A stretch of DNA of 64,000 nucleotides from Ignavibacteriota bacterium. GTDB taxonomy: Bacteria; Bacteroidota; Ignavibacteria; UBA10030; SZUA-254. Position numbers and translations under genes: made by a program. The notes beneath the pieces were generated by a model. The model made no database searches. It was not told the DNA's origin and worked only from the letters and a program-made list of their open reading frames with translations. Location of the stretch: contig CAVSHI010000006.1 of the NCBI GenBank assembly GCA_963727845.1, positions 3,935 to 67,934 on the forward strand. The letters are read 5' to 3'. Shown here piece by piece: positions 8,631-61,579 of this stretch. Position 1 is the first letter of the stretch; each line of letters starts with the position of its first letter.

Positions 8631-10320
8631 ATGAAACGCATCGTTTTGATCGCCCTGATGTGTTGTGTTCTCTTCGGTTGTCTCGAAGCCCGGATTCGCC
8701 GTGAGGGAGAAATCAAGGCTGGATTGTTCGACGAACTGACGGAGCTGTATCCCGATACACGAATGCAGCAACCCGTAAAATCCCTTTCCGTTGACGCAGC
8801 CCGGGGAACAATCGCGGGAGTCCATCTCTTGATTACGGGGCTGAGCCGGAAAGCAACTGTGAGTTTCCGGGTGACCGACAGCAGCGGAACGCCGATGCAC
8901 GATGCCCGGTGGTACCGGATGATCGATGTTTTTGTGGGAGAGAACACTGGTCTCGACCTGGGCCACTGAAAAATTCAGCGGAATGATAAATCCTTACGTG
9001 ATCCGCCGGGCGCCTTTCAGAATTTATGACGCTCTCGATCCGATCGTGCCGCCTCTGGAGGTCGATTCCGGGACGACCGCCATACGACTGGAAGTGCCCG
9101 TCGATTCAACTCTCAAACCGGGAGAGTATTCCTACAAAATCCGGGTTGACGTGGGCAGCGAGACCGAAATGTTTGATTTCAACGTGCATGTCCATCGGGC
9201 TACGGTTCCGCCGGTTAGCCGGTCGACAATTTCCTACATAAACTGGATGAACCTGGACAACGTTTGCAAAGATCATGCAGTGGAAAAGTGGAGCGAACCG
9301 TTCTGGAATATGATGAGAAAGTATGCCGGTCTGATGGCCCGGGGACGCCAGAACACTTTCTGGTTCTTATGGCAGGATTTTTTTACATTTGACACATCGG
9401 GGACAATCGCCGAGTTCCGCAGGGACCGGCTGGAGAGGTTCATCCGCACGTTTCTTGATGCCGGATTCCGAACAATTCATGGCGCGCCGATTGCCCGACG
9501 GAAGGATTGGTTGTCGAATGATATGTTGTTGACGGTGAACCTCCCCGACGGAAAAGAAATTCCGGCCGTTTCAGACAAAGGCAAACGCATGATACTGGAA
9601 ATGGCCGGACGTATTGTCGCCATGATGAAAGAGAATCAATGGGATAACCGCTGGCTGCAGGGGATCTTTGATGAACCGACTGACGAGTTTGTGGATCGCT
9701 ACAAAGAAATAGTGGCGCTTCTGCGAGGAGCAAAACCGGACCTCGCCATCCTTGAGGCCACGATGACTGTCAAATTGAGCGGCTCAATTAATGTGTGGTG
9801 TCCCCAGGTGCAGGAATACCAGGCGCAACGCGAGTTCTTTGACCGGCGCAAAGCATCCGGAGACAGGGTGTGGGTATACACGTGCCTTGCGCCGGGCGGA
9901 CCCTGGCTCAACCGTTTATGCGACGAGGAACGTCTGCGGCAGGTGTACATCGGATGGGCGTGCGCAAAATTTGACCTGCAGGGATTCCTCCATTGGGGAC
10001 TCAATTTCCACGGCGACAAACCTTTCGAGGAACTCGTGAGATTTCATGCAGCGCCAAATACATTCCTGCCGGCAGGGGATTCCCACATCCTGTACCCCGG
10101 GAAAGACGGGCCGCTGTCGAGTCAGAGGTTCGAGGCGCATCGGATCGGGATGGAGGACTATGAACTCCTTGCCCAGCTGAAAGCTCGTGACACAGCGAAA
10201 GCACTCCTGATAATTGATAAGATTTTCCAGTCCTTTGACCGGTACAACAAGAATGTTGACGAATACCGGAGAGCAAAGGCTGTCCTGCTCGAATCGGTTG
10301 ATGCTTTTTCAGCCGAATAG
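8631..10320 (+). CDS. DUF4091/GH123-like lipoprotein, interrupted by an apparent +1 frameshift; it is spread across ORFs 8610-8969 and 8926-10320
   Basis: ATG 8631 starts a lipoprotein signal (MKRIVLIALMCCVLFGC). The two ORFs overlap by 44 nt in adjacent frames at a T5 run (8929-8933). The downstream frame carries a DUF4091-like C-terminus (TCLAPGGPWLNRLCDEERLRQVYIGWACAKFDLQGFLHWGLNFHGD). Confidence 0.5.
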
Positions 10321-10435
10321 GTTCGCGTCGTTGATAACCGCGCGCCGACCGATGGAGGTATCGCCGGATCGAGGGAAAAAGAAACATTAGTGTTTGGATA
10401 TTCGAAATTATGACATCGGAAAAATATAGAGGCTT

Positions 10436-10506
10436 GTCATTCTGAGGAGCGAAGCGACGAAGAATCTCATCCCGGTTTTGTCAGATCCTTCGCTCCGCTC
10501 AGGATG
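10436..10506. repeat. palindromic hairpin-pair repeat, family A copy 1 (unit GTCATnnTGAG..GAGCGAAG..AnnATCTC); its second arm is cut by the IS insertion and resumes at 11594
   Basis: The two arms are gtcattctgaggagcgaagcgacgaagaatctc and, inverted, gatccttcgctccgctcaggatg(ac). The same unit recurs at 15841-15911. Confidence 0.7.
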
Positions 10507-11586
10507 GGTATAATGTCCAAATTGTGTTGCTGTTTTTAGTGTGTGCATAATGACAAATACCACTGAAAGTATGCTGGACGGTGACGCTGTGCGAGACCTC
10601 GATGCTGACGATAGCGTTGTTTGAGTCGTGAGAAATACCCTTCCAAGGCATTGGTGGAACTTGCGATGAGTGGATTGTTCAGGTAATGAAACATGTTTGG
10701 AAGAGCTGCCAGTAACATGCTGCGGGCTCGTTTTAGATCGCTAAAGACGTATCCGTGCTCAGGAGTTACGGCGATATGGACGCCGTAGGTATGTTCCCAG
10801 GCATCTACACGCTTAAGAAAGTTTTTTCGATCCAATGATGAATGGATCGTTGTTACATCAAGGAAGATCTGGCGTAGATGTTTTGCGTCCGTGCGCTTGG
10901 GCATTCGTCGACACCAACTTAAGCCTTGACGCTGGATATGAACCAGGCAGCGCTGTAAAACGATTGTGGGCCATTGTCGACGTAATGCTTGGCTTAACGC
11001 CGGATTGCCATCAATAGTGGCATATTCTAGGGATAATCCCTGCTGTGCAAGGCACTGGAACAGTACACCCAAGTCTTGTGGTTGTTCCGAGACATTGTAC
11101 GCACCATGGAGCATTGTATGATTGGTCGCGTTCATGACGGCAAGGATCCCTTTGCGACGATTGATGAATGTCCCATCAACAATTGCGTAAACAGATTGAC
11201 CCAAGGATGGATGTGGTCCCGGCGGCGGTTGTTGCAGCCAGTACTCGATAATACGACGGATGGTTGATACACTGTGTACACTTTGTCTGGCAAGTTGACG
11301 TAGCGTGTATCCTTCAACCAGCCATCGTTGGAACCACACAAAGCTTCGTAGGCGTTTATTCGTTTTGTTTTGCCAGACGAAGGAGTGTTGACATGAATGA
11401 CACAACCATCGTTGACGCTGTGGGCGCAGTGTTCCATTACGTTTAACATGGACTGAGCCGCAATGAGGACAATGTTTTTTTCATAAATAATGGTCAATCA
11501 TTGAACCGTTTTAACCTTAGTATCCGTAAACGAATACAGGAACACAAATTACAGTCATCCGAGCAACACTTTTTGAGCATTATACC
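10507..11586 (-). mobile_element. IS1595-family insertion sequence, 1080 bp, with 9-bp perfect terminal inverted repeats (GGTATAATG / CATTATACC) and a 7-bp target-site duplication CAGGATG
   Basis: The terminal inverted repeats are at 10507-10515 and 11578-11586. The direct repeat CAGGATG flanks them at 10500-10506 and 11587-11593; it extends to 8 bp with one mismatch. The element carries a DDE transposase gene and has lower GC than its flanks. Confidence 0.75.
10536..11484 (-). CDS. IS1595-family DDE transposase (Zn-ribbon CPHC..CHSC, HTH, DDE domain); frameshifted in an A7 run right after the start codon
   Basis: ORF 10536-11405 has an HTH (GYTLRQLARQSVHSVSTIRRI) and the IS1595-type C-terminal motif TNALEGYFSRLKQRYRQHRG. 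The same frame continues upstream as KKHCPHCGSVHVKRNG...WLCHSCQ with no start codon. ATG 11484 lies in the adjacent frame just before the A7 run (11475-11481 on the + strand). Confidence 0.7.
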
Positions 11587-11649
11587 CAGGATGACAACTC
11601 CCTTAATAACTCCACGGAACTCCACTAATAATATAAGGAAACATCTCCC

Positions 11650-13668
11650 ATGACGATATGGATGTCAATTCGAAAGATTACCGTAGTGGTGGCTTATCTT
11701 CTTGCCGCGGTCGCAAACTCCGGATTTGCCGGGCAGAAAGTCACATGGCCTGATACGGTCTGGCTCACTTCATTAGATTTGACCAAAATGCATCAAGGGT
11801 GGGGGCAGCCGCAAAAGGACAAATCTGTTACTGAAAGACCATTGTCCATTGCAGGTCACAAGTTTCAGCGCGGAGTCGGCACGCACGCAGTAAGCCGGTT
11901 GTGGGTTGACCTGGGTGGAAATGCGGAGATGTTTCTTGCTTCCGTGGGGGTCGACGACGATGCATTGAATAATCCGGGTTCCGTCGTCTTCAAAGTTGTG
12001 GGAGACGGTAAGAAGCTCTGGGAGTCAGAAATCAAGAGGCCGGGCGATGCGGCAAAAAAAGTGAGCATCGACATCCATGGGATCAAATATCTCGTGCTTC
12101 TGGTCGGGGACGCCGGCGACGGAGTCAGCTATGACCACGCTGATTGGGCGGACGCGATGTTTGTCATGCATCGCGGGAAACCGGAAGCCATTGAACCACC
12201 CGGAGAAGAAAAAGTTATCTTGACTCCCCGACCGGGGGCAAGACCGCGCATTAATGGCGCTAAGATCTTCGGTGTTCATCCGGGCGCACCTTTTCTCTTT
12301 ACGATACCCGCAACGGGTATGCAGCCGATGAAGTATGCGGTGAAAAATCTGCCGACCGGCCTGGCCGTAAATTCTGAAACCGGGCAGATTACAGGGTCTC
12401 TCGACAAACCCGGTAAGTATTTCGTGAAGTTCGTGGTATCGAATGACTCGGGCGTTGCCGAGAGAGAATTCAGAATTGTTTGCGGCGACACGCTGGCCCT
12501 CACGCCTCATATGGGATGGAATAGCTGGTACGTTTGGGAGAACCACGTCACCGATGGAATCATGCGCGCCGCCGCCGATGCAATGGTGAAAACGGGCATG
12601 ATTAATCACGGTTACATGTACGTCAATGTTGATGATTGCTGGGCAGTGAAACCCGGATCCGACGATTCCGCTCTCGGGGGGCCGCCGAGAGACTCCCGCG
12701 GGATGGTTAATTCCAACAAGCGTTTTCCCGATATGAGAGCGCTGACCGCGTACATACATTCGAAAGGTCTGAAGGCGGGGATCTACACGTCGCCGGGACC
12801 GACGACCTGCGCCGGCCATGTCGGTGCGTACCAGCATGAGGAGCTTGATGTGCAACGCTTTGTCGAATGGGGATTCGATTTTTTGAAATACGATTGGTGT
12901 TCGTACGACGACGTTGCCCGCAGCCACAACCGCGAGGAATTGCAAAAGCCCTATCGGCTCATCGGAGGGATCCTGAAAAAGCAGAATCGCGACATCGTGT
13001 TAAACCTCTGTCAGTACGGCATGGGGAATGTCTGGGAGTGGGGCAGGGACGTGGGTGGAAACAGCTGGCGTACGGCAGGCGACCTCGGCGGCTCGTTCGA
13101 GGGAATCGCTGCCGCGCTGTTCCGCGATGGATTCGATGTCTATGCCAGGAACGACCTCCACCGGTATTCGGGTCCCGGCGGATGGAATGATCCGGATTAT
13201 CTCCTGCTGGGCTATCTGAGCAACTGGCATGGAGAGACGGTCCCCACACCGCTGACGCCGAATGAACAATACACTCATGTTTCACTCTGGTGTTTGCTCT
13301 CCGCTCCGCTCATCTTCAGCGGTGATATTACGCGGCTGGATGAATTCACTTTGAGTCTGCTGACCAATGACGAGGTCATTGAGGTCGACCAGGATCCGAT
13401 GGGAAAAGCGGGGAGACGCATCTGGCAGGATGAAGACGTTGAGGTCTGGGCAAAGGACCTGGAGGACGGTTCGAAGGCGGTCGGCTTATTCAACCGCGGC
13501 GAATTCGAGTCGACCGTGACTGCCAAGTGGAACGATCTGACTCTCGCCGGCGACCAGCGCGTCCGTGACCTCTGGCGGCAAAAAGACCTTGGAGTTTTCA
13601 AAAGCGAATTCTCTTCAGCGGTTCCCCGGCATGGAGTAGTTCTCCTGAGGATCTGGCCGGCGAACTAG
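11650..13668 (+). CDS. GH27 alpha-galactosidase / alpha-N-acetylgalactosaminidase with an N-terminal NPCBM (NEW2) carbohydrate-binding domain
   Basis: It has a signal peptide and an NPCBM-like N-terminal domain (GHKFQRGVGTHAVSRLWVDLGG...DHADWADAMF). The GH27 signature LTPHMGWNSWYVWENHV...VNVDDCW is present. Confidence 0.85.
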   Translation: MTIWMSIRKITVVVAYLLAAVANSGFAGQKVTWPDTVWLTSLDLTKMHQGWGQPQKDKSVTERPLSIAGHKFQRGVGTHAVSRLWVDLGGNAEMFLASVGVDDDALNNPGSVVFKVVGDGKKLWESEIKRPGDAAKKVSIDIHGIKYLVLLVGDAGDGVSYDHADWADAMFVMHRGKPEAIEPPGEEKVILTPRPGARPRINGAKIFGVHPGAPFLFTIPATGMQPMKYAVKNLPTGLAVNSETGQITGSLDKPGKYFVKFVVSNDSGVAEREFRIVCGDTLALTPHMGWNSWYVWENHVTDGIMRAAADAMVKTGMINHGYMYVNVDDCWAVKPGSDDSALGGPPRDSRGMVNSNKRFPDMRALTAYIHSKGLKAGIYTSPGPTTCAGHVGAYQHEELDVQRFVEWGFDFLKYDWCSYDDVARSHNREELQKPYRLIGGILKKQNRDIVLNLCQYGMGNVWEWGRDVGGNSWRTAGDLGGSFEGIAAALFRDGFDVYARNDLHRYSGPGGWNDPDYLLLGYLSNWHGETVPTPLTPNEQYTHVSLWCLLSAPLIFSGDITRLDEFTLSLLTNDEVIEVDQDPMGKAGRRIWQDEDVEVWAKDLEDGSKAVGLFNRGEFESTVTAKWNDLTLAGDQRVRDLWRQKDLGVFKSEFSSAVPRHGVVLLRIWPAN

Positions 13669-13689
13669 TAGGATCTGTGCAAACAGGGA

Positions 13690-13924
13690 TGTAGAGTCCG
13701 GTTCGAAACCGGACAACGGTAACGAAGAAGGATTTTCTGCTCTGTCCGATTACGAATCGGACTCTACCAAGCATAACTGGGGCTCGTTCCCAAATTCCAT
13801 TTGGGAAGACGGCGGACAGGTGTGCTCCCGACGTGCGTAGAGTCCGGTCCCCCGACCGGACATCCAATGTTGTCTTCTTGCGAGCGCGAATGTGCAACGC
13901 CGTCCGTTTACGAAACGAACTCTA
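13690..13924. repeat. cluster of four hairpin repeats of about 24 nt (family D, GTAGAGTC-CGnTT-loop-AAnCG-GAC) in alternating orientation
   Basis: Units lie at 13690-13713 (+), 13743-13766 (-), 13835-13860 (+) and 13901-13924 (-). The stems differ between units by compensatory changes: CGGTT/AACCG, CGATT/AATCG, CGGTC/GACCG, CGTTT/AAACG. Confidence 0.65.
13781..13806. repeat. 26-nt palindromic element, family C copy 1: GCTCGTTCCCAAATTCCATTTGGGAA
   Basis: It is a perfect 9-bp inverted repeat TTCCCAAAT-N3-ATTTGGGAA. The identical 26-mer occurs in reverse orientation at 61554-61579. Confidence 0.7.
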
Positions 13925-14278
13925 CGGCAAACTCGCTGGGAGGGAGCTTTGCTCCCGACCTGCCCCGGAAACGTCCATTTTCTGCAATGGTGGCGAGTGC
14001 GCTTGCTGGCCATCTCTGTGGGAGAACTCCGACCCACGACCAGCTCGCCGGAGTGGGCAAATGGGCAAAGAGTTCCGCTAGAACTCACGTGTGTGGTTCG
14101 GGCATGCTCTGGCATCCCGGAATTAAAATTTTCCCAGCATCTTCATTTTCGATTAAACCTTTCGAATCGGTGTGGGTCTGATAACATAGAAGCAAACTCA
14201 TAATGAGGGTTGTCAGTACTCCATAAACAATTGAAAGAGGTTCTGCAAAACATCGCGAATTTCAAGAAATTCTGAATA

Positions 14279-14345
14279 AAATCCCGTTTTTGAGATCCTC
14301 CAGTGTTCGCACTGTCCCCCTCCCAGTGCAGCACGAATCAAAAGC
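14279..14345 (+). other. long imperfect hairpin (16-bp stem AAAATCCCGTTTTTGA / TCAAAAGCGGGATTTT with a loop of about 44 nt) followed by a T-rich tract, upstream of the ArsR-family gene
   Basis: The inverted repeat is visible in the sequence. The loop has internal complementarity (CAGTG..CACTG). The element is not a canonical terminator. Confidence 0.4.
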
Positions 14346-14455
14346 GGGATTTTTATTTTTCCGAGGCCGACCTTAGTTCCTTCCTTGCTCACTGATCCCA
14401 ATTTGCATATTTGTCGATTTATTTCGATATTGATAGAAATAGATTTGGAAAAGCA

Positions 14456-15037
14456 ATGTCAGAGAATGAAATAACCACTGAACTTCTAACTCTCCTCAAA
14501 GGCCTGGCCGACAAGAACCGCCTCAAGATCATCGGCCTTCTGTCCCAGCGGCCGCGTGCGGTAGAGGAACTCTCCGCGTCTCTCAAACTGGGCGCCTCCA
14601 CAGTGTCCCATCATCTTTCCGTTCTGGGGAAAGCGGGACTCGTCGCGGGAAGGGTGCAGGGATACTATAGCATTTATTCCCTCCAGTCGGGCCCGCTGGA
14701 GGTAATGGCGAAACGGTTCTTGAAACGCGAAGAGCTGAAGGGATTAGCCGAGGATGTGCCCGGGGATGCGTACGACAAGAAAGTGCTCGCTGCATTTACG
14801 ACGCCGGAAGGCCGGATCAAAACCTTTCCGATGCAGGAGAAGAAATTTCTGGTCCTTGTTCGATACGTTCTTCGTGCGTTCGAGCCGGGTGTCCGGTATG
14901 CCGAGAAGCGCGTCAACGAAATTCTTTCCCGATTCAGCGAGGATACCGCGCGGCTCCGGCGGGCGCTTGTAGAGCATCGCTTCATGGCCCGGGAGGGCGG
15001 CGGCGGCGAGTATTGGCGTATCGATGTGGATAATTGA
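14456..15037 (+). CDS. ArsR-family transcriptional regulator fused to a DUF2087-like C-terminal domain
   Basis: The ArsR HTH is LKGLADKNRLKIIGLLSQRPRAVEELSASLKLGASTVSHHLSVLGKAGLV. The C-terminus matches the DUF2087 pattern (FPMQEKKFLVLVRYVLRAFEPGVRYAEKRVNEILS...LRRALVEHRFMAR). ATG 14456 is preferred over the TTG at 14411. TAGATTTG at 14440-14447 resembles an FCB -7 box. Confidence 0.75.
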   Translation: MSENEITTELLTLLKGLADKNRLKIIGLLSQRPRAVEELSASLKLGASTVSHHLSVLGKAGLVAGRVQGYYSIYSLQSGPLEVMAKRFLKREELKGLAEDVPGDAYDKKVLAAFTTPEGRIKTFPMQEKKFLVLVRYVLRAFEPGVRYAEKRVNEILSRFSEDTARLRRALVEHRFMAREGGGGEYWRIDVDN

Positions 15038-15306
15038 ACATTTTGAAGGAGAAAAAATCCGTGGACAAATATGTGAAAGTGATTGAATTCGAGAACGTGG
15101 CGGAAGCGACGTTGATTCAATCCATACTGGAAAATGAGGACATTCCATTCATCATACGGTCGTACCGCGATTCAGCGTACGATGGGTTGTTCCAATTTCA
15201 AAAAGGATGGGGTCGCCTGGAAGCCCCGGAAGAGTTCAAGGAACGGATTCTACTGTTGTACAAGGATATGAATCAGCAGGGTGGAAAGGAAATTCCCGGA
15301 GTATGA
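15034..15306 (+). CDS. DUF2007-like small protein (putative signal-transducing domain)
   Basis: It is 90 aa and matches the DUF2007 pattern (VKVIEFENVAEATLIQSILENEDIPFIIRS). Its ATGA start overlaps the stop of the previous gene. Confidence 0.5.
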   Translation: MNILKEKKSVDKYVKVIEFENVAEATLIQSILENEDIPFIIRSYRDSAYDGLFQFQKGWGRLEAPEEFKERILLLYKDMNQQGGKEIPGV

Positions 15307-15716
15307 CAATTAACTCTTCCCTGGAACGATTCGAGCTTCCTATCCAGGTCGTGCCTTCGGATATCGATCAACTCGGCCATGTGAACAACGTCGTCTACCT
15401 GCGATGGGTGCAGGATGCGGCTGTCGCCCATTGGCAGTCGGCCGCAACGGCGGCACAACAGGCGGCGGTTTACTGGGTCATCGTGCGCCACGAAATCGAC
15501 TACAAGCACCCCGCCCGGATGGGAGATTCGATCATTGCGCGCACCTGGGTTGGGAAAGGTGCACTCCACACCTTTGAACGCTATACTGAAATTCTGCGGG
15601 CACGTGACCGCCGCTTGCTGGCGCGTGCCTTGACATTATGGTGCCCCATTGATGCTCGAACGGGCAAGCCTGCCCAGGTGGGCGCCGACATCCGCGAACG
15701 GTTTTCCATTCCCTAA
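15303..15716 (+). CDS. acyl-CoA thioesterase, hotdog fold, 4-hydroxybenzoyl-CoA thioesterase/YbgC-like
   Basis: The start overlaps the upstream stop (ATGA). Hotdog thioesterase motifs are present (PSDIDQLGHVNNVVYLRWVQDA ... WVIVRHEIDYKHPARMGDSI). Confidence 0.7.
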   Translation: MTINSSLERFELPIQVVPSDIDQLGHVNNVVYLRWVQDAAVAHWQSAATAAQQAAVYWVIVRHEIDYKHPARMGDSIIARTWVGKGALHTFERYTEILRARDRRLLARALTLWCPIDARTGKPAQVGADIRERFSIP

Positions 15717-15751
15717 GAGATATTGTCCGACCATCTCAGGATTTGACGAAG

Positions 15752-15770
15752 AGGGGTTTGCCCCTTTTTG
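15752..15770 (+). terminator. candidate rho-independent terminator (AGGGG-TTTG-CCCCT followed by TTTT) after the thioesterase gene
   Basis: A 5-bp GC-rich stem, a tetraloop and a T-run lie 36 nt past the stop codon. Confidence 0.45.
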
Positions 15771-15840
15771 TCATAGTGACTTGTAACGTCCTGATTCCAC
15801 CACCCCTTTTGTCGAGGCTGTCCAAAAAGTCTCTTGTCTT

Positions 15841-15911
15841 GTCATGTTGAGCGAAGCGAAACATCTCTATGCACGAAAACGAGTGAGATTCTTCACTCCG
15901 TTCAGAATGAC
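15841..15911. repeat. palindromic hairpin-pair repeat, family A copy 2
   Basis: The two arms are gtcatgttgagcgaagcgaaacatctc and, inverted, gagattcttcactccgttcagaatgac. The unit is the same as at 10436-10506, with covarying stem dinucleotides. Confidence 0.7.
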
Positions 15912-16015
15912 AATTCCTTTTTCTTACTTTTTGGACGGCCCCTGTATAGACTTGGGAGATGGGGATAGAGGGGAGGTTTTACTTCTTGCGATGTCAATGT
16001 GATTCAAGTTCCATA

Positions 16016-16096
16016 ATCCGCAACCCTCACCCTGTCACTCCGTGACATCCCTCTCCCACTGGGAGAGGGAGCGAGGGTGAGGGTTGAAATGCGGAT
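16016..16096. repeat. nested palindromic repeat, family B copy 1 (CCCTCACCC ... TCCCTCTCCC-N4-GGGAGAGGGA ... GGGTGAGGGTT)
   Basis: The inner perfect palindrome is at 16048-16070. It is bracketed by the outer pair CCCTCACCC (16024-16032) and GGGTGAGGG (16075-16083). The element lies between convergent genes. Confidence 0.65.
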
Positions 16097-16153
16097 GACA
16101 TAACGACCCAAGGACTTATCAAAACCACTGGCGTGACACGATAGCGACTTCAC

Positions 16154-18412
16154 TCAGCTCCTGATCAGGTACTGAAGCTTCAAGAAGTATTGCCGGGCGG
16201 TCTTCGTTATACCGTACGGCTCCCCAAAATCTGAAAAAGTGTAGGTCGACCCCGCGTAAAATATTGTGTACGGGTTGAGTTTGTAGCTCACGAGCGGATA
16301 GAAGTCGATTTCCCCCGAGAATTCATCATACTGCCCGATCACGCGCAGGAACACTCTATTGGTAAACTGATAAATGCCGGTTGCCCTCGCGATATACCCG
16401 TCATAGAAAAGGTCTCCGGTCGTGATGCTCGCCAGCCGCGCCCGCGAGTAGGAAAGGTCGGCCTCCAGTTGTGATGTGAGCTTGACCTGTGCCGTCGTGG
16501 TGATCGTATGGCCTCGTCCCACGTCAGCTTCGTCAACGCGCTTGATGAATTGCCCGAACGAGCCGTCGAAATAAAGCGTGAGAACACTTGAGGGACGGGA
16601 GTTGACGGTTATCTCTGTCCGGTTGACCGCGGTGAACCAGACACCTTTGTATAGCTCATCATTTACAGCGAGGTAGTTGATACTAATATTCGTCTGACCC
16701 TTGAACTGAGCGTACAAACTGGGAACGGCCCAGAGCTCCTTGCGAACTCCATCGTAATTATAGTGGAGACCATTGTTGAGTGAGATCGACCATTGGTCGA
16801 GCCATGCATTGTTGGGATACCACGAATACTGCTGCTGGAGATAGGTCGTGCGGAGATTATTGTTCGGTATGAAACCGTCCTGCGCCTGGAACGTCGGGCC
16901 GCGATCCTGGTATTGGATGCCAAAGCTATAGTCGCGTGCGTTGCGTTGGAGGCTGAGCATCGTCGACGATCCCGAGTAGTGCTCTCCATTGAATGCAGCA
17001 TCATTACCGGTGCTGCCGAAGCTTCGCGTATCCGAAAAGACGGAGGTGTCATTCACTTCCTTCGTATCCGCATAAAATACCTCTCCGCTGAAATAGTAGT
17101 TTTCCCAGAATTTGTATTTCCAGTCGACTCCGCCCAGGTAGTTGTGGGCAGCCCCGGTGTTGCGTGTCGTAACCATTCCTCCGAGAAAGTCTTCCTTACC
17201 AAAATCATAGCGCGCCCGGGCCACATTTGAATATGACTGAAGGTCCGTCGCGATGTAATCGCTCGTTTCTTCGCCGGGGATGATGAAGGGGGTATTCCGG
17301 TCGGATGCTGCCAGGTATGCAAACGAGAACGAGCCTGATTTCCCGATCACACGTGCCGCGCCGAGCGGGTTGTTGATGGTGCGGGAGTAATACGTCTGTG
17401 TCTGATTTTGAAACATATCGGCTCCCACGAGAAAAAAGGGTCGCTTCTCGGGATAGAACAGCGCGAAGTTGGAGTTGACGCTAATTTGCGTCGCATCCGA
17501 CTCAACCTGACTGAAGTCCGGATTGTATACTCCTTCAACTGCAAAATCGGGAGTCGGGGCATAACGGACGCCGCCTCCCGCCCGTCCCGCTGACCTGCCA
17601 TTCTCAAACCCTGAAGCGGGATTGGAAGCGTCGTTGAGCGCTCCGCTCTGCTGGCCGACAACGTAGGGGAGAAGCTCGACGGAAGTGGATCCCTCCACAT
17701 CCCTGATCCCCACGATCGTGCCTGCCTGACACGGGAGGCATGGGTTGTTGCGGTCGATTGGAACCCACGATATCTTTACCTGGCTTGCTCTCGGGTAATT
17801 CCTGATGAACTCAGCGACCCAACGTTGAACGGACTTCGACGGGAACCTCAAGCTCTTGAAAGGGAAAGCCATTACTGCCGTCCAGCCGGAGTCGTCGATC
17901 GCCGCAGCGGATTCCCACACCGCGTCGAAGCTTGCGTCCTCGTTGCTTCCCGTTCGAAGTAGGTCCCCCTGAATTCCATAAGGGTTTACCGCCATTTCGT
18001 ACGATCGCTGGTAGTCCCCATACGTGTCCAGGATGACCATGACCCAATCATCATCAAAGAGCTTGTCCCGGTCGGTGATGTGAGCCCGGATATCCGACGG
18101 ATGACTGTCTTTGCATTCGAAACCGAAATAAATGTAGCGCGCGTTGTACATCACGCGGACGGTCGTCTGCTGGGTGGCCGGTGTATTTTCCCCGGGCGTC
18201 ACTTCATAGCTGATCTCCGACGGTCGTGACAGATTCCAGCGCGGGTCGTCCAGCTTGCCCGAAAGTTTGATGTCCTCGTTTATCCTTATGGCCTCAATAT
18301 GTATCCTGGAAGAATCCATCACCTCGGCCGCGACTCTTTCCGCCTGAAAGAAGATGGAGACAAGGAACAGCGCTACAAGGAATCGTTGATATGTCGACGA
18401 TTGTGACATCAT
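16154..18412 (-). CDS. DUF5916-family secreted protein (CBM9-like N-terminal domain plus beta-rich C-terminal region)
   Basis: It has a signal peptide. The N-terminus matches DUF5916 family members (DDPRWNLSRPSEISYEVTPGEN ... DDDWVMVILDTYGDYQRSYEMAVNPYGIQGD). ATG 18412 (MMSQSS) is preferred over 18451. Confidence 0.7.
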   Translation of the reverse strand: MMSQSSTYQRFLVALFLVSIFFQAERVAAEVMDSSRIHIEAIRINEDIKLSGKLDDPRWNLSRPSEISYEVTPGENTPATQQTTVRVMYNARYIYFGFECKDSHPSDIRAHITDRDKLFDDDWVMVILDTYGDYQRSYEMAVNPYGIQGDLLRTGSNEDASFDAVWESAAAIDDSGWTAVMAFPFKSLRFPSKSVQRWVAEFIRNYPRASQVKISWVPIDRNNPCLPCQAGTIVGIRDVEGSTSVELLPYVVGQQSGALNDASNPASGFENGRSAGRAGGGVRYAPTPDFAVEGVYNPDFSQVESDATQISVNSNFALFYPEKRPFFLVGADMFQNQTQTYYSRTINNPLGAARVIGKSGSFSFAYLAASDRNTPFIIPGEETSDYIATDLQSYSNVARARYDFGKEDFLGGMVTTRNTGAAHNYLGGVDWKYKFWENYYFSGEVFYADTKEVNDTSVFSDTRSFGSTGNDAAFNGEHYSGSSTMLSLQRNARDYSFGIQYQDRGPTFQAQDGFIPNNNLRTTYLQQQYSWYPNNAWLDQWSISLNNGLHYNYDGVRKELWAVPSLYAQFKGQTNISINYLAVNDELYKGVWFTAVNRTEITVNSRPSSVLTLYFDGSFGQFIKRVDEADVGRGHTITTTAQVKLTSQLEADLSYSRARLASITTGDLFYDGYIARATGIYQFTNRVFLRVIGQYDEFSGEIDFYPLVSYKLNPYTIFYAGSTYTFSDFGEPYGITKTARQYFLKLQYLIRS

Positions 18413-18646
18413 CCTGATTGAAGTGGCATGTAGCTGAAGTACGCAAAACATCCGAACTTTGTTGCAGTGATAGATAGCGGATACCGTTCGTTCTCGCGGA
18501 ATACGAACCGAACCGGATCTATTCTCAATGAACCATCAATAGGATTCGCCTTCAATTTGGTCTTTGCCTGAGGATTTGCTAAGTTTGTATGGCAATCGGC
18601 AGGGGGCGACGCGTATGTCTCTTTAAATGGCCGTTTTCTCAGCAAA

Positions 18647-18678
18647 TTTGATCGTTCACCTCCACCACTGTAACTTTA
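18647..18678 (+). promoter_or_regulatory. FCB-group-type promoter-like motif TTTG-N20-TAACTTTA immediately upstream of the DUF2723 gene
   Basis: TTTG lies at 18647-18650 and TAACTTTA at 18671-18678. The start codon is at 18688. This matches the Bacteroidota -33/-7 consensus (TTTG / TAnnTTTG) for spacing and sequence. Confidence 0.3.
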
Positions 18679-18687
18679 AAGGATAGT

Positions 18688-21582
18688 ATGAGCAATAAGT
18701 TTTTCCACCGTTTCATTGCGGCTTCAGTCTTTCTGATCTCGCTGATTCAATTCTTCATGACTGCCCAGCCATCGGTCTCCTTCTGGGACCCGGGTGAGCT
18801 CTCTGCTGCCGCGTACGCTCTGGAGGTGCCGCATCCTCCCGGTGGTCCGCTGTTCTCGCTCGTCGGACATGTATTCTACTTGTTACCGCTTCCGGGTAAT
18901 ATCGGATTCAGGATGAATACCCTTTCTGTCGTTGCCAGCGCATTCTCAGTGTTGTTGCTGTATCTCATTGCAGTCCGTCTCATGAAACTTTATAAAGGTG
19001 CGGAACCTCAGAATGTGCTCTCCGCGTGCGGCACATATTTTTCTGCGGCAATAGGCGCCCTGGCGTTTTCATTCTGTGATTCGGTTTGGTTCAACGGTGT
19101 CGAGAGCAACTACTTTGCGGCGAGCACACTGTTGTTCTCGCTCATCGTGTGGTTGACGCTCGTGTGGTATGAAAAGTCGGACGAACGCAAAAGCGGGAGA
19201 TACCTGTTGTTGATCGCCTACCTCATCGGACTTTCCACGGGTGTGCATCTCATGAGTGTCCTCTCGATTTTCGCAGTTGTCATGATTGTAGTTTTCAAAC
19301 GCTACGTTGCCGACGATCGTCATTGCAAGACAACCGCCTTTATTTTTCTCGGGCACATCATCGTGTTAGTCGCAATTGCACTTGCGATGTGGAATAATGA
19401 GACGTCGCAACAGCCGCCGAACCCCGACGAATACAAAGCATACGACATGAACTTCATTTTGATCATGGGCGCGGTGAGCGCCGTCATCGTCGGCCTCTTC
19501 TGGAAAAAGGTTCTCAAGAAGGATTCTTTTTATTCGCCCATCATATTCGGCGCGATTGCTCTTGCTTTCACTTTCGGCGGCATCTTCAAGTTGTTGCCGG
19601 ATCTGCTGCGCCTCCTCGCAGATGACAGCAGTTTGAAAGGGATTGTCGTCCTTGCCATTTTCCTGGCTGTGCTCTCCTACATCGTCTACTGGTCAATTAA
19701 GAACAAGAAAACACTTCTGGCCATCGTCGTATTTTCCGTCATCCTGAACATAGTTGGGTTTACGACCTTCACAACGACAATCATCAGGGCAAACCAGCAT
19801 CCTGCCATGAATGAGAATGCACCGGTGAGCTTCTCACGCCTGGTCGAATACCTCAACCGCGAACAGTACGGTGATTGGCCGATATTTAAGCGGCGATGGT
19901 CCGGTGAACCTCAGCATCAGCGCACGTGGGCGAATTACAAAAGCGATCTTGATTTCTTTTTGCGCTACCAGATCGACCATATGTACAATCGCTACCTGCT
20001 GTGGAATTTCGCCGGGCGGGAGTCGACAATCCAGGACACGGGGGTAAACTGGAAACAGTTATACGGTATACCACTCCTGGTGGGATTGTTGGGGTTGTAT
20101 TTCCATTTTCGGAAGGACTGGAAAATTGCGTCCTCATTTCTTGTGCTATTCATTTTCATGGGATACGGTATTCTCTTCTATCCTAATGCGCAGGAAATGC
20201 AGCCCCGGGAGAGGGATTATTTTTATGCAGGTTCTTTCTTTGTGTTCGCGCTCTGGATCTCGCTGGGCATCCGGGGCTTACTTGATGAAATCGAGAATAA
20301 ATCCCTTACCACGGGTAAAGCAACGTCGTTGTTTGCCGGCATCCTTGTTCTTGGAACGATCCTCATTCCCGGGAGGATGCTGCAGACGAACTACTTCACG
20401 CATGACCGGTCGAGGAACTGGGTCCCGTGGGACTATGCCTACAACCTCCTGCAAACCTGTGCCCCGAATGCAATCCTGTTTACGGGCGGTGACAACGATA
20501 CATTCCCTCTATGGTATCTGCAGGACGTTGAAGGGATCAGGCGCGATGTCCGGATCGTCAACCTGAGCCTCGTCAATACCGGATGGTATGCCAAGCAGTT
20601 GAAACACGAGACTCCGTACGGCACCGCGGCGGTCAAAGTCAACTTGAGCGATGATGTCCTTGACAGACTCCAGCCGATGCAATGGACGGCGCAGCAAGTG
20701 AAGCTTCCCGTGCCCCGCGAGGTCATCGATCAGTATCAGGTTACTGATACGGCGGTCATCAGAACGGGTGCGATCACATTTACCATGTCGCCCACATTAA
20801 ACTACGGAAGCGTCGGCGCGATCAGGATGCAGGATATCATGGTGCGTGAGATCGTCCTGGCGAATGCGTGGCAGAGACCCATATATTTTGCGAGCACCAG
20901 CGGGGAGGATGTTAAGATCGGTTTGGGTGACTATCTGAAGATAGAAGGACTTGCGAGCCGGCTCGTTCCTGTAAAGAGGAACCTCGCGAGCACGATGCGT
21001 TACTCCATCGATGAACCGAGGATGCATAAGAATCTTCTGGAGGAGGCTCCGAATGTGAGTAAGACATTCCAGCCGGGTTTTCTCTTCAGAGGGTTGAATG
21101 ACAGCACGATCTTCTACGACGAAAATGAGGAGCGGATGGTGCTCAATTATAGAGGTTCGTTCTTGATGCTCGCGTCGTACTACATTTCCGAAGCGCATGA
21201 TAAAGATATGTGCCTTAAGACCCTGGATCGCATGGAACAGGTCTCTCCGGAAAATGTAGTGAAGATGGATTACATGCAGGAATACTACACGGCATCCATG
21301 TATTATGCCTCCGGAGCTACCGCGAAATATCGGGTGATCGCTGACAAGGTTGCAGAGTCCGTACTCGCGAGGCTCGGTGACAATCCCACGGATGTGAACG
21401 AGGTCAACAGTCTTTACCAGATTCTCCTTGAGACATACGACAAGACCGCCCAGTACTCGAAAGCCGAGGAAATGCTCGAGCGACTTCTTCCCAGTTATCC
21501 CCAGGATGCAGGTTTGAAGCAGCAAATCGAACGATACAAAGGGCTGGCAGCACAACAGAAGAGCGGGAAATTGCCCCAGTGA
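18688..21582 (+). CDS. DUF2723 (PMT/GT39-like) integral membrane protein with a C-terminal TPR-like soluble domain
   Basis: The DUF2723 signature sits at the N-terminus (SFWDPGELSAAAYALEVPHPPGGPLFSLVGHVF). There are about ten hydrophobic segments in the first 550 aa. Confidence 0.75.
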   Translation: MSNKFFHRFIAASVFLISLIQFFMTAQPSVSFWDPGELSAAAYALEVPHPPGGPLFSLVGHVFYLLPLPGNIGFRMNTLSVVASAFSVLLLYLIAVRLMKLYKGAEPQNVLSACGTYFSAAIGALAFSFCDSVWFNGVESNYFAASTLLFSLIVWLTLVWYEKSDERKSGRYLLLIAYLIGLSTGVHLMSVLSIFAVVMIVVFKRYVADDRHCKTTAFIFLGHIIVLVAIALAMWNNETSQQPPNPDEYKAYDMNFILIMGAVSAVIVGLFWKKVLKKDSFYSPIIFGAIALAFTFGGIFKLLPDLLRLLADDSSLKGIVVLAIFLAVLSYIVYWSIKNKKTLLAIVVFSVILNIVGFTTFTTTIIRANQHPAMNENAPVSFSRLVEYLNREQYGDWPIFKRRWSGEPQHQRTWANYKSDLDFFLRYQIDHMYNRYLLWNFAGRESTIQDTGVNWKQLYGIPLLVGLLGLYFHFRKDWKIASSFLVLFIFMGYGILFYPNAQEMQPRERDYFYAGSFFVFALWISLGIRGLLDEIENKSLTTGKATSLFAGILVLGTILIPGRMLQTNYFTHDRSRNWVPWDYAYNLLQTCAPNAILFTGGDNDTFPLWYLQDVEGIRRDVRIVNLSLVNTGWYAKQLKHETPYGTAAVKVNLSDDVLDRLQPMQWTAQQVKLPVPREVIDQYQVTDTAVIRTGAITFTMSPTLNYGSVGAIRMQDIMVREIVLANAWQRPIYFASTSGEDVKIGLGDYLKIEGLASRLVPVKRNLASTMRYSIDEPRMHKNLLEEAPNVSKTFQPGFLFRGLNDSTIFYDENEERMVLNYRGSFLMLASYYISEAHDKDMCLKTLDRMEQVSPENVVKMDYMQEYYTASMYYASGATAKYRVIADKVAESVLARLGDNPTDVNEVNSLYQILLETYDKTAQYSKAEEMLERLLPSYPQDAGLKQQIERYKGLAAQQKSGKLPQ

Positions 21583-61470: not shown

Positions 61471-61521
61471 AACCTTCACAAGGTTTTCGATGTTTGTCCC
61501 AGGCTGAACCTTGTGAAGGTT
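61471..61521. other. hairpin with a 15-16-bp stem (GAACCTTCACAAGGTT ... AACCTTGTGAAGGTT) and a 21-nt loop in the intergenic region
   Basis: The perfect inverted repeat is visible in the sequence. An A-run (T-run on the minus strand) lies 12 nt away. Confidence 0.5.
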
Positions 61522-61553: not shown

Positions 61554-61579
61554 TTCCCAAATGGAATTTGGGAACGAGC
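61554..61579. repeat. 26-nt palindromic element, family C copy 2 (reverse orientation)
   Basis: The sequence ttcccaaatggaatttgggaacgagc is the exact reverse complement of 13781-13806. Confidence 0.7.

Follow-up and report, generated by a model that had tools for sequence, protein, structure and literature searches.

Background

Bacterial interspersed mosaic elements (BIMEs) of Escherichia coli are made of alternating Y and Z repetitive extragenic palindromes (REPs), the stems of which are about 13-14 bp long and carry bulges. The E. coli REPs include types Y, Z1 and Z2, and REP-associated tyrosine transposases (RAYTs, or TnpA-REP) recognise the tetranucleotide GTAG together with a hairpin (PMC6006769), while inverted REP doublets are referred to as REPINs (PMC3116915, PMC3337134). 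The present analysis deals with the 787-bp gap separating a GH27 alpha-galactosidase gene from an ArsR-type regulator gene on contig CAVSHI010000006.1 of an Ignavibacteriota bacterium (assembly GCA_963727845.1), and in particular with four hairpin units that resemble such repeats. The 64,000-nt stretch of this contig that was analysed is called the window, and all coordinates refer to it unless a relative is named.

The closest described elements are the GTAG-tagged REPs (Di Nocera et al. 2013, PMC3733652), palindromes with an unpaired GTAG (GT[AG]G) tag at one end, stems mostly of 6-9 bp, loops of 2-4 nt and a total length of 20-40 bp. Their sub-families bear complementary stem residues, and they are predominantly encountered as head-to-head ('HH') dimers, 20-100 bp apart with GTAG outside. 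They are sited just 3' of open reading frames (ORFs), between unidirectional or convergent genes; their GTAG termini often supply a TAG stop codon, and clusters take in duplicated flanking DNA. In Bacteroidetes and Chlorobi, this survey recorded CGTC-type repeats only (PMC3733652).

Composition of the island

The island was probably assembled as a patchwork of four unrelated components, mostly belonging to known kinds of elements, rather than as one element. These putative components and the genes enclosing them are as follows.

11650-13668: GH27/NPCBM alpha-galactosidase gene, upstream flank (Pfam)
13691-13925: candidate small cluster of GTAG-tagged REPs, arranged as two head-to-head dimers (REPIN-like doublets)
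13782-13807 (+): second, unclassified palindromic repeat, conserved 3' of GH27
14152-14372 (+): conserved non-coding block, a candidate small RNA or 3'-end element; it would be a lineage-restricted RNA element under strong constraint, ending in a plus-strand hairpin and a U tract
14403-14441 (+): putative autoregulated promoter/operator of the ArsR-DUF2087 gene
14456-15037: ArsR-helix-turn-helix + DUF2087 regulator gene, downstream flank (Pfam)

A first-pass annotation, made from the sequence alone, had already named a GH27 gene on the 5' side and an ArsR-type regulator on the 3' side, in agreement with Pfam. It had also offered three readings of the island, a REP/BIME cluster, a structured non-coding RNA and a regulatory module. 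Each of them was appropriate to a different sub-segment and none to the entire island. The locus illustrates how a lengthy 'structured' intergenic region may be composed of parts that evolve in opposite ways, fast-turnover palindromes on the one hand and a constrained RNA hairpin on the other; nothing found here overturns current understanding.

Anatomy of the hairpin units

The repeat cluster begins 22 nt past the GH27 stop codon and extends over 13691-13925, where four units follow each other in the order + - + -. Each unit measures 24-25 nt and consists of GTAGA followed by an 8-bp stem, GTCCGnnn/nnnCGGAC, enclosing a loop of 3-4 nt. The pattern GTAGAGTNCG-N6-14-CGNAC matched four times in the gap against 0.01 matches expected from shuffles, and no fifth unit was encountered anywhere in the 64-kb window.

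13691-13714 (+): REP-like unit 1, GTAGA + hairpin GTCCGGTT-CGA-AACCGGAC, left arm of dimer 1
13744-13767 (-): REP-like unit 2, right arm of dimer 1
13837-13861 (+): REP-like unit 3, inner stem GGTC/GACC and loop CCCC, left arm of dimer 2
13902-13925 (-): REP-like unit 4, right arm of dimer 2
13691-13767: dimer 1, 77 bp, 27-nt spacer
13837-13925: dimer 2, 89 bp, 40-nt spacer

GTAGA was left unpaired in the fold of every window unit, with the 8-bp stem after it, and single-unit folding as DNA yielded z = -4.0, -4.3, -4.2 and -1.7 for units 1 to 4, respectively. The outer five stem pairs (GTCCG/CGGAC) were near-constant. The inner three were variable yet complementary, stem positions 6-8 alternating among GC/AT/TA, TA/CG and TA/CG/AT. 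Of the 112 stem cells in 14 units, gathered both here and in other genomes, 109 were paired, although units from other genomes had been chosen partly for pairing; in five units retrieved with a pattern that made no demand on the inner pairs, these were complementary in 15 cases out of 15. The four alternating hairpins of about 24 nt with compensatory stem changes, as initially described, were thus confirmed. Both dimers display a head-to-head arrangement with their GTAG ends outward, and within each of them the inner stems differ between the two arms. The arms of dimer 1 are 88% complementary and their minimum-energy fold was a single long hairpin (z = -5.8). A tRNA-like nature was also considered for unit 1, whose loop TTCGAAA resembles a T-loop, but was rejected as the remaining units display unrelated loops.

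Dimer 2, together with 19 nt beyond it (13818-13963), is bracketed by 19-nt direct repeats that are 84% identical, and these are followed by a stretch specific to the window.

13818-13836 (+): left copy of the 19-nt direct repeat, containing TGCTCCCGAC and abutting GTAG of unit 3
13945-13963 (+): right copy of the 19-nt direct repeat, containing TGCTCCCGAC
13964-14151: window-specific stretch of ~190 bp, G+C about 0.59

The double occurrence of TGCTCCCGAC noticed earlier is accounted for by these repeats, the sequence of which is single-copy in relative L120. The window-specific stretch had no counterpart in the window, in syntenic relatives or in any fetched locus. From Y1-type transposition, no target duplication such as the bracketing of dimer 2 by direct repeats would be expected. 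The segment 13750-14115 (-) was tried as a GH27 pseudogene because it weakly matches the 3' end of GH27 in inverted orientation; it displayed neither protein similarity nor any significant DNA match and was discarded.

Comparison with known palindromic repeats

The window units share with GTAG-tagged REPs the tag, the stem and loop sizes, the compensated variants and the position after an ORF. They also form head-to-head dimers with spacers of 27 and 40 nt, are clustered along with duplicated flank DNA and, in one of the other genomes discussed below (L071), provide TAG stop codons. They deviate by an extra unpaired A between GTAG and the stem, by their confinement to one gap in ~150 kb and by their host, an uncultured lineage labelled 'Bacteroidota'. 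As in REPINs (Bertels & Rainey 2011, PMC3116915), inverted pairs surround a short spacer and dimer 1 folds as one hairpin. In contrast to REPINs, whose arms pair into one long hairpin that is copied as a whole, the arms of dimer 2 fold singly, arms differ in their inner stems and no populations of near-identical doublets were observed. With E. coli BIMEs they have in common a strict alternation of orientation within one intergenic cluster and dimer arms of different sub-types, but their stems are far shorter (8 bp) and the sequences linking the units revealed no conserved motifs. The BIME-like reading of the first-pass annotation could be maintained for 13691-13925, on the grounds of GTAG hairpins, dimers, variable unit number and units in other genomes; it did not hold beyond this segment.

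A GTAG family clustered at few loci instead of being dispersed has a precedent in GTAG-23 of Thermomicrobium roseum (PMC3733652), which differs in sequence and host phylum and forms large blocks, versus four units in the window. Because of this precedent, the units were filed as GTAG-type REPs despite their few loci. The assignment to a GTAG-type REP family is a structural one, and mobility by a RAYT is presumed. A RAYT-type Y1/HUH transposase would copy the units, or would have copied them, in the form of single-stranded hairpins, reading the GTAG tag and the stem base. Once inserted, they would be co-transcribed with GH27 and might serve as 3' hairpins protecting or ending its mRNA. If confirmed genome-wide, the family would place GTAG-type REPs, and with them by implication RAYT activity, in a Bacteroidota/Ignavibacteriota-like lineage where the survey (PMC3733652) had reported other repeat types only, and would offer a low-copy case for asking how REP families persist.

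Distribution in syntenic relatives

Four syntenic lineages were reached via homologues of the regulator and of GH27. Coding DNA of the relatives displayed 87-88% nucleotide identity to the window, a value that fell to 71-75% when third codon positions were considered separately. The GH27-to-regulator gap differed in length and in unit number.

Window: dimers 1 and 2 (4 units), gap of 787 bp
L122: dimer 1 only (2 units), gap of 590 bp
L208/L209/L210 (GCA_049515655.1, 'Bacteroidota bacterium'): one lone unit, gap of 475 bp
L120/L121: no unit, gap of 495 bp

Since units are absent from L120/L121 and number one in L208 and two in L122, the repeat cluster does not behave as a conserved structured RNA; as read from these alignments, the repeat-bearing half of the island is turning over quickly. 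The lone unit of L208 is GTAGAGTCCGGTTCGTAACCGGAC, and its left flank is common to unit 1 of the window and of L122, so that an orthologue of unit 1 with matching left flank is found in both L122 and L208/L210. Unit 2 is partly decayed in L122. Dimer 2 and the stretch 13964-14151 belong to the window only, units 3-4 being missing from every relative. As dimer 2 is missing from L122 and yet differs from dimer 1 at several compensated pairs, it more likely originated from another donor copy than by local duplication. The unit 1 orthologue of L122 (2208-2254 of that locus) additionally harbors a 24-nt nested palindromic insert (CCTGCCAGCCGTCCGTTTGGCTGG) directly after GTCCGG, which recalls the variants with long loops reported in certain GTAG families.

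The first-pass annotation had associated passive repeat accumulation with relatives lacking the island altogether. This was borne out for the repeat cluster, which is missing in some relatives, and not for the island, which persists with its proximal 300 bp (next to the regulator) kept. Conservation of these 300 bp was far above the near-neutral rate in relatives.

Units in other genomes

A scan of public genomes (596 Gb) was performed with GTAGAGTYCG-N9-10-CGGAC, a pattern too unspecific for a copy number per genome to be derived. Among the matches listed (at least 121, in at least 119 stretches), 12 out of 121 displayed three inner pairs versus ~6 expected, and most were attributed to chance. 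A locus was accepted as real only when an adjacent inverted partner was present. Head-to-head dimers of the GTAGAGTCCG...CGGAC unit were encountered in at least three metagenome-assembled genomes (MAGs):

L066, Ignavibacteriae MAG: dimer between same-strand ORFs
L071, Bacteroidetes MAG: dimer between convergent ORFs, 2594-2653 of that locus
L090, Ignavibacteriota MAG: dimer between same-strand ORFs

These dimers were considered real because their adjacent inverted partners are not explicable by chance. Their GTAG ends point outward, their spacers are 9-39 nt long and the adjoining ORFs are unrelated; in L071, both convergent ORFs stop at the TAG of the GTAG heads. The units of L208, L066, L071 and L090 all begin with GTAGA. 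Target-site duplications were found at none of the five dimers examined (two in the window and those of L066, L071 and L090).

The conserved block and its long hairpin

The four lineages can be aligned from ~14152 on with no large gaps. Within the conserved block, the core 14229-14348 was identical to L120 at 116 out of 120 positions and to L122 at 113 out of 120 (94-97%), versus 71-75% at third codon positions, a constraint on a par with that at codon positions one and two. A long hairpin closes the block.

About 14274-14360 (+): long RNA hairpin, its base A/U-rich, its core AUCCCG/CGGGAU and its inner stem 12 bp long

Its 16-nt arms (14278-14293 and 14338-14353), which are 94% complementary and 44 nt apart, correspond to the '16-bp-stem' hairpin previously pointed out upstream of the regulator. 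The plus-strand hairpin was predicted at -42 kcal/mol (z = -3.8), while the minus strand was no better than shuffles (z = -0.3). The apical loop of 9 nt, UCCCCCUCC, is invariant across lineages, and a UUUUUAUUUUU tract directly 3' of the hairpin gives it a terminator-like end. Covariation was read from four distinct sequences: four substitutions leave a standard or wobble pair in place (GU/AU, AU/GU, UA/UG, UG/UA) and two cells break. Pairing on the plus strand is favoured, as the stem changes would be mismatches on the other strand. The hairpin was not called by a terminator consensus scan because its apical part exceeds the 8-nt loop limit of the scan.

A nhmmer profile and a covariance model (R1) recovered the element in four syntenic relatives only. 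Rfam gave no match over the entire window at gathering scores, and two chance-level matches only (E about 2) over 13600-14520. In L122, a canonical terminator, CCTCCCC-TAAAA-GGGGAGG with a run of T after it, lies between GH27 and the conserved block, which may therefore be a separate transcription unit from GH27. The block would most likely correspond to the true transcript 3' end of the region, and could possibly be a small RNA (sRNA) whose exposed C-rich loop pairs with Shine-Dalgarno-like GGAG. Such an anti-Shine-Dalgarno role for UCCCCCUCC is conceivable since relatives carry GGAG ahead of start codons.

RsaE and RoxS of Firmicutes are small RNAs with C-rich loops. The element recalls them by its invariant exposed C-rich loop, complementary to GGAG-type ribosome-binding sites, and intrinsic terminators by its stable hairpin and U tract; it is distinguished from both by an unusually long stem (~85 nt in all) and by its restriction to few very close relatives. 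It constitutes a concrete sRNA or terminator candidate for a group with almost no RNA annotation. The combined proposal that 14152-14372 is an undescribed sRNA, free or derived from the GH27 3' untranslated region (UTR), with UCCCCCUCC as anti-Shine-Dalgarno seed, and that the units are the first GTAG-type REPs of the group, low-copy and with or without a RAYT, is put forward as tentative.

Promoter and putative operator of the regulator

Sequence elements typical of ArsR-type autoregulation occupy the end of the gap.

14403-14441 (+): putative ArsR-DUF2087 promoter, TTGCAT at 14403-14408, 17-nt spacer, GATATT at 14426-14431
14420-14441: putative operator, TATTTC at 14420-14425, N10, GAAATA at 14436-14441, an inverted repeat overlapping the -10 box

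Conservation of the last 50 bp of the gap, with promoter and inverted repeat, extends to the upstream regions of more than 15 distant ArsR-DUF2087 homologues, the gene contexts of which are unrelated. As judged from its layout, 14403-14441 is a typical autoregulated ArsR-type promoter/operator. Like ArsR/SmtB autoregulated promoters, it places an inverted repeat over the -10 box of the regulator's own promoter, conserved in distant homologues; unlike in these systems, the regulator bears a C-terminal DUF2087 domain. Because the long hairpin lies upstream of this promoter, it is not part of the regulator leader.

A perfect 7-2-7 palindrome, GAATTTC-AA-GAAATTC, was also observed in the conserved block (14257-14272). 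Its half-sites, ATTTC/GAAAT, are those of the ArsR operator with a different spacing, which may reflect a second site or a coincidence.

The 26-nt palindrome

The palindrome at 13782-13807, GCTCGTTCCCAAATTCCATTTGGGAA, has a 9-bp stem and a 3-nt loop. It does lie between units 2 and 3, as previously noted, and is repeated elsewhere in the window, a second exact copy being situated ~48 kb away at 61554-61579 (-). Both copies are 3' of a gene, in like orientation to it, the second one ~115 nt past the gene end. At the GH27 locus, L122 retains the element, L120 does so with two changes, and the L208 version is degenerate. It perhaps functions as a 3'-end hairpin. Membership in the CGTC-type REPs was rejected: stem length and A/T-first pairs fit, tag, loop length and tail do not. 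The second copy sits between two minus-strand genes, and a perfect 15-nt inverted repeat, AACCTTCACAAGGTT / AACCTTGTGAAGGTT, is adjacent to it (61471-61521).

Alternative explanations

Several results weigh against a patchwork containing mobile GTAG-type REPs and a constrained RNA element. No unit was found beyond the gap in the 64-kb window and ~88 kb from L120, L122, L208, L211 and L213, whereas more than 10 would be expected in ~150 kb at the densities of E. coli or Pseudomonas; 510 kb around more distant ArsR homologues contained none either. In REP/RAYT systems, the cognate RAYT gene is typically bordered by its own REPs (a REPtron); a phmmer search with E. coli RayT retrieved no match among 12,026 ORFs (window and ~1.4 Mb of fetched loci). 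With no unit outside the gap in ~150 kb, REP/RAYT membership is assigned by structure. Dimer 2 does not form a classical REPIN hairpin, its arms being not mutually complementary and folding separately, and dimer flanks are rearranged in every relative, so that a clean comparison of empty and filled sites was not available. Between lineages, unit 1 shows a single difference in 24 nt, against a left flank that matches at only ~14 out of 23; this hints at selection for a local function and not at an insertion that is purely selfish. As to the RNA element, only one of 40 hairpin pairs displayed a truly compensatory change (AU to GC), among four sequences, and neither a sigma-70 scan nor by-eye alignment found a promoter for the conserved block.

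Some of these facts would suit a locus-specific and non-mobile cis device of the GH27 transcript (a 3'-UTR stabiliser, terminator or protein-binding site), grown by duplication and selected, which appears rather unlikely on balance. It would agree with units confined to this gap in ~150 kb of the lineage, with unit 1 being kept at 23 out of 24 nt, with the 19-nt direct repeats around dimer 2, which indicate local duplication, and with a distal region (the GH27 side) that is highly stable as RNA (z = -6.0). However, it leaves aside the head-to-head dimers that the unit forms in at least three other MAGs, at loci unrelated to this one, L120/L121 manage without any unit, and the several compensated pairs that distinguish the stems of dimer 2, together with its absence from L122, are hard to obtain via recent duplication. 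Much less probable is that the dimers are miniature inverted-repeat transposable elements of a DDE-type insertion sequence, with the 24-nt units as terminal inverted repeats and a Mutator/IS256-like remnant 2.3 kb upstream as candidate source. Each dimer is indeed a 77-89-bp element bounded by 24-25-nt inverted repeats, and a Mutator-family transposase fragment (10536-11405, minus strand) is part of an insertion missing from relatives. Nevertheless, none of the five dimers has a target-site duplication, every 'terminal repeat' makes a perfect hairpin of its own and varies in a compensatory way, unlike DDE transposon ends, L208 harbors a solitary unit and no unit is found near the transposase remnant.

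The patchwork reading was also confronted with explanations covering the island at large. That the whole island forms a single structured non-coding RNA or riboregulator for the regulator gene downstream was judged the least probable of all. Both halves fold well as plus-strand RNA and neither contains a credible ORF, but the distal 480 bp are unconserved, with units and spacers appearing and disappearing among close relatives, Rfam gives no match and more distant ArsR-DUF2087 loci retain just the final 50 bp; the ArsR promoter, being 3' of the terminator-like hairpin, moreover excludes the island as regulator leader. A structured RNA across the entire island is disfavoured because unit number varies in relatives and the unit recurs at unrelated gene ends. 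It is also very improbable that the island conceals a small protein gene or pseudogene remnant, either at 13926-14140 or as a 14-21-codon ORF stopping just before the hairpin. The arguments in its favour are a G+C of 0.59 at 13900-14100, like that of coding DNA, and a plus-strand frame, ...VLQNI(A/S)NFKKF*, whose stop (TGA or TAA) is retained in all four lineages. This micro-ORF has, however, no conserved start codon or ribosome-binding site and its 5' half is deleted in L208. None of the island ORFs matched Pfam or displayed similarity to GH27. Their codon-usage scores, at or below those of spurious ORFs, ranged from -0.08 to -0.35, except for 14213-14401 (-) at +0.035, while held-out genes scored +0.07 to +0.31. 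In the conserved proximal block (14140-14455), no ORF is preserved open across all relatives. The initial impression that no ORF in this region looks coding was therefore upheld.

Neighbouring genes

An insertion of ~1.2 kb (10384-11620) separates GH123 from GH27 in the window, where L120 and L208 display a gap of only 106-107 bp. It includes the transposase ORF 10536-11405 (-), a truncated member of the Mutator/IS256 family (Pfam Transposase_mut, E = 2.5e-6), and, at about 10436-10506, an inverted GC-rich pair, GTCATTCTGAGGAGCGAAGCGACGAAGAATC / GATCCTTCGCTCCGCTCAGGATG, apparently another palindromic repeat type. The GH123 ORF (8926-10320) encodes 464 aa, whereas its counterparts in L120 and L208 encode 562-564 aa; a frameshift or truncation seems to have left the N-terminal ~100 residues outside the open frame. 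Downstream of the regulator, L120 possesses an extra hexapeptide-repeat gene (10617-11162 of that locus). In L208, a block of ~6 kb (13744-19701 of that locus) encoding an aldo-keto reductase, SnoaL-like proteins and a Por-secretion-tail protein is situated ahead of the thioesterase gene.

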